Shown here piece by piece: positions 16,072 through 41,854 of a DNA stretch of 64,000 nt. Position numbers and translations under genes: made by a program. Below the pieces are notes generated by a model that saw only the letters and a program-made list of their open reading frames with translations, was not told the DNA's origin and ran no database searches. The DNA is from Escherichia phage vB_EcoM_VR20. The stretch's first letter is position 1, and each line of letters opens with the position of its first letter. The stretch lies in sequence record NC_028894.1; one strand, 5' to 3'.

Positions 16072-16290
16072 TCACTTGCGACGACGTTTTGGTAATGGTT
16101 TAGGGAAGAACATTGCTTTACCTGCAGGGGTCAAAGTCACACGCAAAGCATTACCAATACCAAGGGATGCTTTAACCAGACCTTTGGCTTTTAACTCGCC
16201 AAATGCTTGACGTTGTTCAGGGTCACGAGTGTTAACCATCAGACCTTTTTCACCAGCAGCTTTGATTAATTCTAACATTTTATTCTCCAT
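16072..16290 (-). CDS. Hypothetical small basic protein
   Basis: 72 aa; preceded by class II leader cassette and terminator. Confidence 0.4.
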   Translation of the reverse strand: MENKMLELIKAAGEKGLMVNTRDPEQRQAFGELKAKGLVKASLGIGNALRVTLTPAGKAMFFPKPLPKRRRK

Positions 16291-19417: not shown

Positions 19418-19701
19418 TATTCCACCACATATGATAATGAGAAAATTGCTGATGAAAGATGAGTAGCATCTTCTTCACACAGTTCAAATGGAGCTTTCTG
19501 CAAGAGTTCAACCACTTCTTCATCAGTGGCACTGTCCATAAAGATTGCATAATCGTTAAGATAGATAACAACCTCATCACCAGTATTAACTGCATCAATC
19601 TTGATGTTCTTAATTCTCATTGTATTCTCCTCAGTAGTTGATGGGATAATAGTACACCCTTTTGATGAGGATGTAAACCCCCTAAATGAAAAAAGGTCCA
19701 C
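19417..19701 (-). CDS. Hypothetical protein
   Basis: 94 aa ORF preceded by class I promoter cassette. Confidence 0.4.
   Translation of the reverse strand: MDLFSFRGFTSSSKGCTIIPSTTEENTMRIKNIKIDAVNTGDEVVIYLNDYAIFMDSATDEEVVELLQKAPFELCEEDATHLSSAIFSLSYVVE
19630..19680 (-). promoter_or_regulatory. Class I early-promoter/leader cassette
   Basis: GTTTAC...GTGTACTATTATCCCATCAACTACTGAGGAGAA. Confidence 0.4.
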
Positions 19702-34516: not shown

Positions 34517-34822
34517 TTAAATTTTGTTTTCCTGCACACCATAATAAAGTTCATCAGACACAATATCCAGGATGCGGCGAACATATTCATCATGGTATTG
34601 GCAGTCAAAATCAAATGCAACAGTAGTTTCCGCTTCACGAGTGAATTTAACTTGCACATTCAGGTGATTAACAACGTTAGTTAATTTATCAGTAAAGAAC
34701 TCTTTTGCTACCGCCTGTTGGACTTGCACTTTGAACTTGGTGTTACGAATCATATTTTCAGCAGATGTGAAATTACCAGTTTTATCAAAGTCAACAAGCG
34801 CCAGGTTGATGATGAATTTCAT
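34517..34822 (-). CDS. Hypothetical protein
   Basis: 101 aa ORF preceded by class II leader cassette. Confidence 0.45.
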   Translation of the reverse strand: MKFIINLALVDFDKTGNFTSAENMIRNTKFKVQVQQAVAKEFFTDKLTNVVNHLNVQVKFTREAETTVAFDFDCQYHDEYVRRILDIVSDELYYGVQENKI

Positions 34823-34824
34823 TT

Positions 34825-34900
34825 TATTCTCCAGTGTTTTATTTGGTAACTCAGTATGGAATCATTATGCCTTAAAGCAGGGGGCTTGTATACCCCCTTT
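34825..34900 (-). promoter_or_regulatory. Class II promoter/leader cassette with upstream GC hairpin
   Basis: GGGGGtatacaagCCCCC hairpin, then GCATAATGATTCCATACTGAGTTACCAAATAAAACACTGGAGAATAAA-ATG. Confidence 0.5.
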
Positions 34901-34904
34901 TTAA

Positions 34905-35348
34905 TTAAATTTCAAATTCTTTGCGGAAGTTGGAAGCATAAGACTGAACTGATGCTTTGTTGAATCCAAACTCACGCACAATCATATCAATAACAGCTCT
35001 GCGAGCAGCACCGTTAGACATATTAACAGTTCTGAACATATCATAGCATAAATCTTTGTTGCTCATACCGGAGCGTTTAGGTGCCTTACGTTCAGCTTTT
35101 GGTTCAGCTTTAGGAGTAGGTTTAACTTCTGGTTTAACCTGTCCATCATTCAGACCTTTAAAAATTTTACCTGCCAGAGTTGCCAGTTTAGCAGCTTCGC
35201 CACGAGTGATACCAAATACTGCCGGGTTAAATGAAATACCTTCAGCTGTCAGACGTTTGAAGAACATACGTGCTGCGGATTGTGCTTCAGCTTCAGAAGA
35301 GTTGTTTAATGCCAGTTTAACATACTTAACCAGTTTTGAAGTTTTCAT
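34905..35348 (-). CDS. Hypothetical protein, paralog family with conserved C-terminal domain
   Basis: 147 aa; C-terminus ...NGAARRAVIDMIVREFGFNKASVQSYASNFRK shared with 35801..36226; class II leader upstream. Confidence 0.5.
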   Translation of the reverse strand: MKTSKLVKYVKLALNNSSEAEAQSAARMFFKRLTAEGISFNPAVFGITRGEAAKLATLAGKIFKGLNDGQVKPEVKPTPKAEPKAERKAPKRSGMSNKDLCYDMFRTVNMSNGAARRAVIDMIVREFGFNKASVQSYASNFRKEFEI

Positions 35349-35349
35349 T

Positions 35350-35420
35350 TTATTATCCCGTTTGTTTATTTGGTAACTCAGTATGGAATCATTATGCCTT
35401 AGTTAAATTCCAAAGTACAT
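35350..35420 (-). promoter_or_regulatory. Class II promoter/leader cassette
   Basis: GCATAATGATTCCATACTGAGTTACCAAATAAACAAACGGGATAATAAA-ATG. Confidence 0.5.
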
Positions 35421-35421
35421 A

Positions 35422-35718
35422 TTAATTTTCAGAAGTTGGGAAATAAACTTCAAAGTCATACATGTTTACTACTGCAGTCGCGATTGCTTGGTACTGCATA
35501 CCCAAGAAAGTTTTCTTGTTCTTACGCCACAAGTTAACCATTTCTGTTTTGATGCATGCCAGGGAGTAGTTGGATGCAGGATACTGTTTGATGATTGCAA
35601 CAACTTCTTCAGAAGCAGTTTCGCACAATTCATTCAGTTGAGCTTCAATTTTAGCAGAAATGATTGCTTTGTTTTCTTCTTGAGCTTGGGTAGCGTGCCA
35701 TGCAGGTGCGTTGAACAT
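35422..35718 (-). CDS. Hypothetical protein
   Basis: 98 aa ORF, class II leader upstream. Confidence 0.45.
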   Translation of the reverse strand: MFNAPAWHATQAQEENKAIISAKIEAQLNELCETASEEVVAIIKQYPASNYSLACIKTEMVNLWRKNKKTFLGMQYQAIATAVVNMYDFEVYFPTSEN

Positions 35719-35719
35719 T

Positions 35720-35790
35720 TTATTCTCCAGTGTTTTATTTGTTAACTCAGTATGGGATAATTATACACTATCCCACCTGGAAGTAAAACA
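35720..35790 (-). promoter_or_regulatory. Hybrid class I/II promoter/leader cassette
   Basis: GTGTATAATTATCCCATACTGAGTTAACAAATAAAACACTGGAGAATAAA-ATG. Confidence 0.5.
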
Positions 35791-35800
35791 CTTTTCTCAA

Positions 35801-36226
35801 TTATTTTTGAGCTTTGCGGAAGTTGGATGCATATGACTGAACAACAGTCTTTTTGATATCATGGGTGGTAACCAGAACATCAATCAGAGCGCGACGAGCT
35901 GCATTATCATTCATATCAATTTCTGCAAATGCCTGGAAGCAAATGTCACGAGCATTACCAGATTTGGACTGGATTTTTTCTTCTTTAACTTCTTCAATTG
36001 GGAATTCAATCATTTCAGCTTGGATTAATTCAATGATAGATTCTTTTGACTGTTTGGTGTTTACCTTCAGTTCAGAATTAAGGGACTTGGCGATGGCAAC
36101 AATCTGGGTTGAAGTCAGATGAATAAGTGCATCTTCACGAATGCAGATTTCACATACTTCGTCAGCAACCATTTTGTTGGTGATGCGGGTAACAGAAAAT
36201 GCAGAGGTCAGGGTCAGAAAGTTCAT
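35801..36226 (-). CDS. Hypothetical protein, paralog of 34905..35348
   Basis: 141 aa from internal Met MNFLTL; C-terminus ...DNAARRALIDVLVTTHDIKKTVVQSYASNFRK. Confidence 0.5.
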   Translation of the reverse strand: MNFLTLTSAFSVTRITNKMVADEVCEICIREDALIHLTSTQIVAIAKSLNSELKVNTKQSKESIIELIQAEMIEFPIEEVKEEKIQSKSGNARDICFQAFAEIDMNDNAARRALIDVLVTTHDIKKTVVQSYASNFRKAQK

Positions 36227-36227
36227 T

Positions 36228-36320
36228 TTATTTCTCCAAAGTTTTGTTTGATTCAGTGTGTAACTCAGTATGGAATCATTATGCGCCGGGTCAATTCGGA
36301 TGTACACTACTTTTTGAAGA
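36228..36320 (-). promoter_or_regulatory. Class II promoter/leader cassette
   Basis: GTGTACA...GCATAATGATTCCATACTGAGTTACACACTGAATCAAACAAAACTTTGGAGAAATAAA-ATG. Confidence 0.5.
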
Positions 36321-36344: not shown

Positions 36345-36365
36345 AAAAAAGCCCGCAATGCGGGC
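36345..36365 (-). terminator. Rho-independent terminator
   Basis: GCCCGCaatGCGGGC hairpin followed on minus strand by TTTTTT, 3 nt after stop of 36368..36922. Confidence 0.6.
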
Positions 36366-36367
36366 TG

Positions 36368-36922
36368 TTAGTTCTTATAAAAGCGGAACGGATTTATATG
36401 AAAGGCGAGCATAGCCTTAGGGATGGGTCGGGACAGAAGGCTCTTGAGCTTCCAGCCACAATAAACACGCAGATAAAAGGTGATTCCACCGACCTTAAGA
36501 TAAGGAACAGAAGCAAAAACACCCCAGGCGTTGTCCGTCCACATCCAGAGCCATCCATGATGAGCTTTATCCGGGGAACCAGATTCGACATCAGGATTAC
36601 CTTTATAATGGAATTCTGAATTGCAATCACGACCGAGCTTGTGGTAAGCAAAATTGTATGCTTTGTTTCGCCAGAGCCAGGCTACTCGTTGGAAGTAAAC
36701 ACCTAACGGCCATTTTCTGATTTTTTCCCAGCGTTTAACATGACCACGGTCACCATCAATTGGATTATCGTATGTCATCATCCAGTCAAATCCGAACGGA
36801 AGCTTACCAGTCTTTTTGTTATGGAACGGCACTACAAATGGTGCAAGGATAACAGCCAGAATCATTGAAATGAAATCCAGTGGCACTAACAGAATCCAGC
36901 TTAGATATTTTAAAAGTTTCAT
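36368..36922 (-). CDS. Membrane-anchored protein, apparently late-expressed
   Basis: 184 aa; N-terminal TM LSWILLVPLDFISMILAVILAPFVV then Trp-rich soluble domain; TATAAATA ~27 nt upstream. Confidence 0.5.
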   Translation of the reverse strand: MKLLKYLSWILLVPLDFISMILAVILAPFVVPFHNKKTGKLPFGFDWMMTYDNPIDGDRGHVKRWEKIRKWPLGVYFQRVAWLWRNKAYNFAYHKLGRDCNSEFHYKGNPDVESGSPDKAHHGWLWMWTDNAWGVFASVPYLKVGGITFYLRVYCGWKLKSLLSRPIPKAMLAFHINPFRFYKN

Positions 36923-37910: not shown

Positions 37911-37987
37911 TGGTCGGGGTGGTGGGATTCTAACCCACAACCTACGGTTTAGAAGACCGTTGCTCTATACAATTGAGCTACACCCCG
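37911..37987 (-). tRNA. tRNA-Arg (anticodon UCU), CCA encoded
   Basis: Manual cloverleaf: acceptor CGGGGTG/CACCCCG, D-stem GCTC/GAGC, anticodon stem ACGGT/ACCGT, loop CTTCTAA, T-arm GTGGG-TTAGAAT-CCCAC. Confidence 0.8.
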
Positions 37988-37989
37988 AG

Positions 37990-38062
37990 TGGCCCCATCC
38001 GGACTTGAACCGGAAACCTGCCAGTTATGAGCCGGATGCTCTAACCAATTGAGCTACAGGGC
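37990..38062 (-). tRNA. tRNA with CAU anticodon (Met or Ile)
   Basis: Manual cloverleaf: acceptor GGCCCTG/TGGGGCC, D-arm GCTC-AATTGGTTA-GAGC, loop CTCATAA, T-arm TCCGG-TTCAAGT-CCGGA; one mismatch in anticodon stem. Confidence 0.7.
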
Positions 38063-38068
38063 CTAAAA

Positions 38069-40776: not shown

Positions 40777-41109
40777 TTATTTATACAGTTTAGCTAGTTC
40801 TTTACGTCCGCGAGCAGACATAATGAATTGTTCATCACCAATTTTGAAATAAGCCATACCGCCGTCAACAGCGATGCCAATTTCTTTAGTACCTTCTTTG
40901 CCTTTCCACTTACCACCAGATTTCAGGACAGCTTCAACTGCAGCTTTGGAATATTTGGACGTTTGAAAACGTTCATTACCAATCTGAAAGAAAACACCAT
41001 CTGCATTTTTGGATAAACCAAATTTCAGAGAGCCTTCACTATCATCAATTGATTTGGTCTCATTGATGGCGGATTCGGCTAAAAACTCGTTGTAAGTTTT
41101 GATGTTCAT
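40777..41109 (-). CDS. Internal-protein-like ORF with CTS-like N-terminus (ipI position)
   Basis: 110 aa; MNIKTYNEFLAESAINE; directly upstream of 57B. Confidence 0.5.
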   Translation of the reverse strand: MNIKTYNEFLAESAINETKSIDDSEGSLKFGLSKNADGVFFQIGNERFQTSKYSKAAVEAVLKSGGKWKGKEGTKEIGIAVDGGMAYFKIGDEQFIMSARGRKELAKLYK

Positions 41110-41165
41110 TTTAACTCCGTTTGTTCATTGGTGTAGGAACATAATACTGCACCTACACTCATTTG
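41110..41165 (-). promoter_or_regulatory. Promoter-like element with inverted repeat around -10
   Basis: TGTACA...GTGTAGGtgcagtattatgttCCTACAC upstream of the ipI-position gene. Confidence 0.4.
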
Positions 41166-41169
41166 TACA

Positions 41170-41854
<685 letters not shown>

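Follow-up and report, generated by a model that had tools for sequence, protein, structure and literature searches.

A shared C-terminal domain of predicted helix-turn-helix fold in a conserved pair of putative early proteins of Escherichia phage vB_EcoM_VR20

Why should two neighbouring phage genes encode proteins that share a C-terminal domain and have nothing in common before it, and what might such a domain do? The question is raised by a 64,000-nucleotide (nt) stretch of the genome of Escherichia phage vB_EcoM_VR20 (Gaprivervirus, T4-like; record NC_028894.1; hereafter the window, meaning this stretch at its full length), in which two genes, here named A and B, lie on either side of a third open reading frame (ORF). 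A sequence-only reading of the window had seen in them a duplicated, N-terminally diversified module of unknown function with near-identical C-termini. Our analysis leads us to favour, tentatively, the interpretation that A and B are early proteins whose shared, putative helix-turn-helix domain binds one common target, most likely DNA, and that B and A act as a unit.

When the two proteins were compared by BLASTP, 31 of 73 aligned residues were identical (42%, E = 2e-17) and the match covered the C-terminal halves only, which confirmed the presence of a shared C-terminal domain. The N-terminal regions are unrelated (hhalign P = 0.77), also in agreement with the earlier description. The term "near-identical" was too strong: the 32-residue stretch that had been quoted is identical at 20 of 32 positions, and full identity is confined to the ten residues VQSYASNFRK. 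A six-frame search of the window with either C-terminus returned the other copy as the sole match (E ~1e-13; next match E > 1), and a hidden Markov model (HMM) of the family found exactly two copies in the 64 kb.

The low-complexity PKAE linker of A lies outside the conserved core, which rules out a low-complexity match. Both genes are intact, with ratios of nonsynonymous to synonymous polymorphism (pN/pS) of 0.15-0.22, calculated from small counts, against the orthologues of phages EAWsc9 and DK-13; this excludes a pseudogene. A mechanical ORF list extends B up to a GTG at 36307. The ATG given in Table 1 was taken as the true start, because a GGAG Shine-Dalgarno sequence precedes it, a promoter cassette lies inside the longer ORF, and the homologues begin with MNF and are 141 amino acids (aa) long. 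Nineteen homologues of B (51-99% identity) match it over the full length.

Profile searches with the domain, as had been proposed, outlined a tiny family. Scans of A, B and the middle ORF against Pfam, NCBIfam and PADLOC gave no meaningful match; hits to PBP_like, the CT847 effector and similar entries were far below threshold and were discounted. For 22 family members, Pfam returned no match at E-values up to 10. In PHROGs, A, B and a 71-aa protein consisting of the domain alone fall into three families of unknown function that cross-match through their C-termini, in line with the earlier description of a module of unknown function. Searched exhaustively with a profile, 1.84 billion representative proteins yielded just 15 clusters, and as far as the source records show the family is small and confined to phages and phage-like contigs. 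The domain occurs in three contexts: (i) fused to an A-type N-terminal domain, (ii) fused to a B-type N-terminal domain, and (iii) alone, in proteins of 69-74 aa.

The third context is represented in every Gaprivervirus record by a domain-only gene of 69-71 codons, located about 75 kb away and outside the window. This gene lies between gene 52 and motA, ending 2 nt before motA, and in an independent T4-like contig the domain-only gene likewise adjoins motA. The EAWsc9 record names it "thioredoxin", which looks like a mis-annotation.

The distribution of conserved positions within the domain was examined in 20 diverse members. The lowest-entropy columns are those of helix 3, to which a single Cys and a single Phe of helix 1 and a Met of the loop after helix 1 must be added; in helix 3 the entropy is near 0 for V-Q-S-Y-A-S-N-x-R. 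Judged from helical periodicity, the V, Y/A and F/Y residues of this helix would face the core, and Q, S, S, N, R and K would be exposed. The constraint acts on the protein and not on DNA or RNA, because synonymous codons differ between lineages, including TCN versus AGY codons for serine. For the same reason the shared stretch was ruled out as a recombination or binding site conserved at the DNA or RNA level. The net charge of the domain ranges from 0 to +6.

The fold was predicted from a model of B, built with a 24-sequence alignment, which reached a predicted local distance difference test (pLDDT) score of 83, compared to only 55 for single-sequence AlphaFold. The C-terminal domain in this model consists of helices 92-100, 108-122 and 126-140, helices 2 and 3 being joined by a three-residue turn into a helix-turn-helix. 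In the predicted structure it has the three-helix fold of a homeodomain, with a helix-turn-helix and a long recognition helix, and the closest folds, none of them at a significant level, are DNA-bound BEN domains and homeodomains. The best match of the family profile in the PDB was a homeodomain (2da3, E = 0.058), the alignment running from helix 2 through the turn into helix 3. Comparison by hhalign with 14 homeodomain sequences gave P = 0.0039 and a probability of 8.6%, in full-length register and with a loop between helices 1 and 2 that is four residues longer. In this register VQSYASN[FY]RK stands opposite [VI]K[IV]WFQNRRxK, the N and R of the family coming to lie at homeodomain N51 and R53; at the WFxNRR positions (W48, F49, N51, R53) the core family has Y, A, N and R. 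We conclude from these predictions that the fold is probably homeodomain-like; the conclusion concerns the fold and does not extend to homology with homeodomains.

What precedes the shared domain was also analyzed. The N-terminal domain of B is predicted to contain three strands and helices 31-36, 39-49 and 61-72, and is followed by a disordered linker (residues 83-89 in the model) whose length and sequence differ among homologues. Helix 39-49, an 11-residue loop and helix 61-72, with the sequence pattern LxxxQ[IL]VxIAKS...K..[IL]..[IL], recall the helix-extended loop-helix (HeH) arrangement, and the conserved motif LxxxQ[IL]VxIAKSxNxxxKVNxKQSK resembles those of HeH, SAP and Rho_N domains. 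The likeness lies in the helix-loop-helix pattern of the model; the accompanying fold matches, to the Rho N-terminal domain, SAP and HeH/LEM proteins, are weak. One GenBank record labels a B orthologue "rho-N domain-containing", and eight B-type N-terminal domains scanned with Rho_N (PF07498) gave no match at E-values up to 10. A match of the HeH-like motif (LxxxQ[IL]VxIAKSLN...VN.K) to "ChlA", a 77-aa protein in the PDB (9gm3/9gmc), was non-significant (E = 0.47) and this lead was dropped.

The N-terminal domain of A matched DUF2786 (PF10979) below the gathering threshold (14.3 versus 23.9 bits, E = 0.04 for the window protein). Such sub-threshold matches were obtained for 4 of 10 A-type members (E 0.025-0.04) and are a lead only; the DUF2786 literature held nothing on function. 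In several lineages the linker of A contains much K, P and A, and the number of PKAE copies in it varies between phages: A of EAWsc9 has 155 aa versus 147 in the window, the eight extra residues being two more PKAE units. The record of this EAWsc9 orthologue (PQ341120) carries the label "H15 domain", which most likely reflects the low-complexity linker; no Pfam linker-histone match was found, and the label, which implies a winged-helix H15 domain, was rejected.

Of the checks suggested earlier, structure prediction bears in part on nucleic-acid binding, since a homeodomain-like helix-turn-helix fits such binding and is no proof of it. Several results weigh against DNA as the ligand. No significant sequence link to any DNA-binding family emerged from the Pfam, NCBIfam and PADLOC scans or from the PDB profile and hhalign comparisons given above. 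A Foldseek search of the PDB with the B model returned nothing at E < 0.4, though homeodomain proteins head the list. Tyr replaces the N51-aligned residue in the B homologues of Rosemountvirus and Loughboroughvirus phages, and in the domain-only paralogue Met stands opposite R53. The analysis revealed no candidate DNA target. It should also be noted that a helix-turn-helix-like shape does not guarantee DNA binding: AsiA of phage T4 has a motif of this kind yet binds sigma-70.

A second possibility is that the domain serves in protein docking, helix 3 binding a conserved host protein (e.g. RNA polymerase, sigma-70 or a nucleoid protein) or a phage protein such as MotA, and thereby delivering the N-terminal domains. 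We consider this unlikely, if still a serious candidate. That the surface stays invariant in phages whose hosts are as far apart as Acinetobacter and Escherichia speaks for it, as does the position of the domain-only copy beside motA; gene neighbourhood in T4-like early regions is, however, weak evidence for shared function. Moreover, DNA-bound proteins are the closest folds, the domain is basic and in A is preceded by a Lys-rich linker, and B carries a second, HeH/SAP-like motif of a type that usually binds nucleic acids.

That B and A act together is suggested by their distribution. Each type has full-length orthologues at 45-62% identity in other phage genera, and the two genes are neighbours in every lineage that has both. 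This neighbourhood is kept in four or more lineages, 45-kb phages outside the T4-like group among them. The split between A and B is therefore old. The order is B, 98-aa ORF, A in the window and in DK-13; B followed directly by A in EAWsc9 and in a metagenomic T4-like contig (L005); A, an unrelated 89-aa ORF, B in Morganella phage MP1 (Gualtarvirus); B, a 167-aa HNH-like ORF, A in Erwinia phage RF1 (46 kb, not T4-like); and B, a 44-aa or 127-aa ORF, A in two further RF1-like contigs of 45 kb. The middle ORF of the window is a passenger outside the pair, because it is missing in EAWsc9 and L005 and because other phages have unrelated genes in its place. Between B and A lies a hot spot of gene gain and loss, a slot whose contents range from nothing to the HNH-like endonuclease of RF1.

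The B-type N-terminal domain was found in 98 phage records, including single B genes in Acinetobacter phages 133 and ZZ1. The A-type N-terminal domain occurs in just 36, all of which have B too, and among the records examined an intact A was never seen without B. In phage VR7 (HM563683), B (ORF147c) and the domain-only copy (ORF277c) are kept, and A (ORF145c) matches only residues 1-62 of A, with its C-terminal domain undetected; A seems to have been truncated or replaced there. The Rosemountvirus and Loughboroughvirus phages (~52 kb) encode B-type proteins of 187-188 aa with a divergent C-terminal domain (HMM E ~2e-6) and an added acidic C-terminal tail, and no A-type partner was detected near these genes. 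Helix 3 reads V[IV]QSYMSYYRN in the B-type proteins gp11 of Salmonella phage birk and ORF79 of S144. The earlier picture of a duplicated, N-terminally diversified module is not supported by these comparisons: there are orthologues across genera, the pair is kept in at least four lineages, the N-terminal parts are different domains, and each genome has a third member.

A further explanation is that A, B and the domain-only protein pair with one another through the shared domain, the activity residing in the N-terminal domains. Such dimerisation would account for the fact that unrelated phages inherit B and A together, as neighbouring genes. It would also suit the opposite charges of the N-terminal domains (basic in A, acidic in B) and the situation in RF1-like phages, where the C-terminal domains of A and B from the same phage are 55-57% alike, compared to 47% for an average A-B pair. 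(In a clustering of the 47-residue domain, which is too short for this, A-type and B-type copies were not separated.) However, conservation is strongest at polar residues (Q, S, S, N, R, K) that periodicity places on the exposed face, which is unlike a typical hydrophobic interface. In addition, B stands alone in Acinetobacter phages, Rosemountvirus and Loughboroughvirus, and the domain also exists on its own. Dimerisation is therefore in our view distinctly improbable.

Early expression of A and B is likely, because T4-type early promoter/leader cassettes stand before every copy of the domain, including the domain-only copy next to motA. B, the middle ORF, A and the gene after it are each preceded by one copy of a repeated unit of ~50 nt, which makes four copies at the locus; the earlier statement that the first three genes share a leader cassette was correct. 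The 22-nt core of the cassette occurs six times in the window, versus none expected by chance. On the coding strand the cassette comprises a -35 element GT[GT]TACA, a 17-nt spacer, a -10 element CATAAT or TATAAT, the invariant GATTCCATACTGAGTTAC, an A-rich leader and GGAG before the ATG. The name "class II" given to this leader is reasonable, as at least two classes are present in the window: one has a short leader (TATTATCCCATCAACTAC...GGAG), and that of class II is longer (CATAATGATTCCATACTGAGTTACCAAATAAA...GGAG). The class II 52-mer was found 9-13 times per Gaprivervirus genome and also in Gualtarvirus phages of Morganella and Providencia. The domain-only gene is preceded by a terminator and a class II cassette with the longer leader variant, as for B.

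In RF1, the promoter of the B gene (~41087-41170) is of the T4 early type (GTGTACA, 17 nt, TACTAT) and is the only match to this pattern in the 46-kb genome. It shares an identical 20-nt sequence, GGGTGTACTATTATCCCATC, with a "class I" early promoter of the window (~19600-19678, minus strand). This points to a transfer of the B gene, along with its promoter, between phage groups.

If the shared domain does bind DNA, the following mechanism may be proposed. A and B would each be driven by a strong early promoter of their own, and each protein would join a distinct N-terminal domain, through a flexible linker, to the common three-helix domain of about 50 residues. The third helix, VQSYASN[F/Y]RK, would be the recognition surface, most likely in the DNA major groove, and the basic residues before helix 1, plus the Lys-rich linker of A, might add backbone or minor-groove contacts. 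Because they have the same recognition helix, A, B and the domain-only paralogue would be directed to one target. At this target, B would apply a second, HeH/SAP-like nucleic-acid-binding module, and A a helical, DUF2786-like module with a different activity; the two would work as a unit, since they are inherited together. As to the role in early infection, we infer either remodelling or silencing of host DNA, or tuning of early and middle transcription of the phage.

The class II cassette itself was considered as the operator of the domain. In its favour, it is found where the family is, in Gaprivervirus and Gualtarvirus, and stands before each of the three paralogues; against it, the core CCATACTGAGTTA is missing from the RF1-like promoters and the cassette also precedes unrelated genes. 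This candidate is unsupported and is kept only as an idea of low probability.

The arrangement of the cassettes recalls the PeSLs of T4-type phages and their T-even analogues, mobile early-promoter/stem-loop cassettes that flank small genes without known function in hyperplastic regions (PMC2839356, PMC4122927). PeSLs typically have GGGG/CCCC stems (PMC2839356), and gene gain and loss take place precisely between the cassettes (PMC2839356, PMC4122927). The locus has in common with these a repeated, intergenic, strong early promoter, whose -35 and -10 elements are correctly spaced. Gene indels bounded by cassettes occur here too: the 98-aa ORF, which lies between two cassettes, is present in the window and DK-13 and absent from EAWsc9 and L005. 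A clear GC-rich stem-loop accompanies two of the four cassette copies, and none is evident for the two middle copies. In contrast to the published definition of PeSLs, the promoters are of the T4 early type (-35 GT[GT]TACA) and are followed by a conserved transcribed leader, CCATACTGAGTTAC...GGAG.

The locus adjoins tRNA genes, as had been noted, and the domain might bind RNA (tRNA, rRNA or the leaders of early mRNAs) rather than DNA. We give this little credence. The adjacency to tRNA genes is explained by the conserved gene order of T4-like phages, and over the stretches examined no tRNA genes were seen next to the copies in RF1-like, Rosemountvirus and Loughboroughvirus phages. The leader common to the cassettes does not fold, its folding energies of ~0 being no better than those of shuffled sequences, and the fold matches concerned are non-significant. 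Recent tandem duplication at the locus, followed by rapid N-terminal divergence, or decay of one copy to a pseudogene, would explain why the nucleotides encoding the shared helix are identical at 29 of 31 positions between A and B of this phage, but has practically no likelihood, given full-length orthologues of both types in several genera and in unrelated 45-kb phages, unrelated N-terminal domains, two intact genes under purifying selection, and synonymous sites of the shared stretch that vary between lineages.

The favoured interpretation, a helix-turn-helix domain directed to DNA, invites comparison with known systems. The likeness to the eukaryotic homeodomain (PF00046) is one of predicted fold, and possibly of mode of action, and not of family membership. 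Apart from the longer loop and the replacement of W48/F49 by Y/A, the family differs in having no Pfam match, an invariant Cys in helix 1 and a distribution confined to phages. With the DNA-binding BEN domains found in proteins of animals and viruses (Bsg25A/Insensitive, BEND6, BANP, NACC1) only the helical core is common: there is no Pfam BEN match, identities are 4-13%, and the BEN chains are about twice as long (92-133 residues). The closest parallel in general design is MotB of T4, an early, non-essential, non-specific DNA-binding protein that alters the binding of H-NS and whose conserved C-terminal domain is combined with three alternative N-terminal domains across Tevenvirinae (PMC7827196). 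Like MotB, A and B are small two-domain early proteins of a dispensable T4-like region with a conserved C-terminal domain and alternative N-terminal domains. MotB is predicted to be all-beta, with KOW and OB-fold domains (PMC7827196), whereas A and B are helical by prediction; the two are set apart by their described folds, and no sequence relationship is expected.

The coordinates of all features are collected in Table 1. The region 33400-38100 matches 750 phage records, the best (~95% identity) being those of Escherichia phages DK-13, P479, MN01 and VR25, which are classified there as Straboviridae, Tevenvirinae, Gaprivervirus. The A/B locus is a variable early region that extends from the lysozyme-gene side ("e-segB intergenic region" proteins in record notes) to the tRNA genes, and every gene in it is on the minus strand. 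An Rfam search identified the two tRNAs and nothing else. The tRNA with a CAT anticodon (37989-38063, minus strand) was called tRNA-Met by ARAGORN, and its orthologue in the EAWsc9 record is annotated as tRNA-Ile2 (CAT), i.e. the lysidine-modified isoleucine tRNA. The DUF7338 gene is found directly upstream of B also in contig L005, and one GenBank label for it is "amidase-6 domain-containing". Elsewhere in the window, a 72-aa ORF (16072-16290, minus strand) follows another class II cassette; it has a strongly basic tail, KPLPKRRRK, and by eye resembles a small winged-helix-type DNA-binding protein.

Table 1. Features of the A/B locus and related elements (positions refer to the window unless stated otherwise)
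Feature	Position	Strand	Remarks
Gene A, 147 aa, phrog_18416	34905-35348	-	stop codon 34905-34907; pN/pS 0.15-0.22
A N-terminal domain, aa 1-69	35142-35348	-	basic; motif KY[IV]xLALNNSSEGEAxxAARxFF
A linker, aa 70-96	35061-35141	-	Lys/Pro-rich, low-complexity PKAE repeats
A copy of shared C-terminal domain, aa 97-147	34908-35060	-	net charge +3
Gene B, 141 aa, phrog_9997	35801-36226	-	start ATG 36226; stop codon 35801-35803; pN/pS ~0.2
B N-terminal domain, aa 1-78	35993-36226	-	predicted three beta-strands, then helix-extended loop-helix; acidic net charge
B linker, aa 79-90	35957-35992	-	acidic/polar, predicted disordered; pLDDT < 50 at residues 83-89
B copy of shared C-terminal domain, aa 91-141	35804-35956	-	three predicted helices
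Middle ORF, 98 aa, phrog_27242	35422-35718	-	slot between B and A
Next gene after A	34517-34822	-	own cassette upstream
DUF7338 gene	36368-36922	-	directly upstream of B; full-length match, E = 1.5e-62
Class II promoter/leader of B	36227-36307	-	-35 GTGTACA, -10 CATAAT, GATTCCATACTGAGTTAC, A-rich unstructured leader, GGAG
Class II promoter/leader of middle ORF	35719-35787	-	TTTACT, 16 nt, TATAAT
Class II promoter/leader of A	35349-35421	-	
GGGGG...CCCCC stem-loop (34879-34898), then class II cassette	34823-34904	-	downstream of A, upstream of 34517-34822
Intrinsic terminator of DUF7338 gene	36350-36366	-	7-bp stem with 6 GC pairs, T-run; directly before B promoter, PeSL-like side-by-side arrangement
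tRNA-Arg(TCT) and tRNA-Met(CAT)	37911-38063		neighbours of A/B locus
Early promoters in the window, both families	41170, 39565, 36307, 26838, 25720, 19678, 16349, 15760, 13056 (starts)	-	
Domain-only paralogue	EAWsc9 piece L020, 3001-3216; piece L018, 334-543		outside the window

Early genes in variable regions of T4-like phages mostly lack a known function, and among those investigated so far many serve to take over host transcription, the nucleoid or host defences. Helix-turn-helix-type, modular early proteins are known in phages as a kind; what is new is an undescribed, phage-restricted family of small, probably early proteins. On a bolder and improbable interpretation, A, B and the domain-only paralogue would form an unrecognised phage regulatory system that addresses one DNA element through a homeodomain-like module. 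B and A would be an obligate pair (e.g. bridging or recruiting versus competing), the domain-only copy, co-transcribed with motA, would tie the system to the early-to-middle switch, and the pair with its T4-type promoter would be mobile into unrelated 45-kb phages.

The family is represented by three paralogues in each Gaprivervirus genome, and its B and A members are kept together across unrelated phages. Its compact domain, which has no Pfam entry and is covered only by the three PHROGs of unknown function, has a putative recognition helix that is nearly invariant. Were this to turn out an ordinary helix-turn-helix regulator, the result would amount to a routine improvement of annotation. 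Should the domain bind DNA, phages would provide a clear example of a reading head of the homeodomain type, and the T4 field would have, after MotB, a second case of one DNA-binding domain with interchangeable N-terminal domains.

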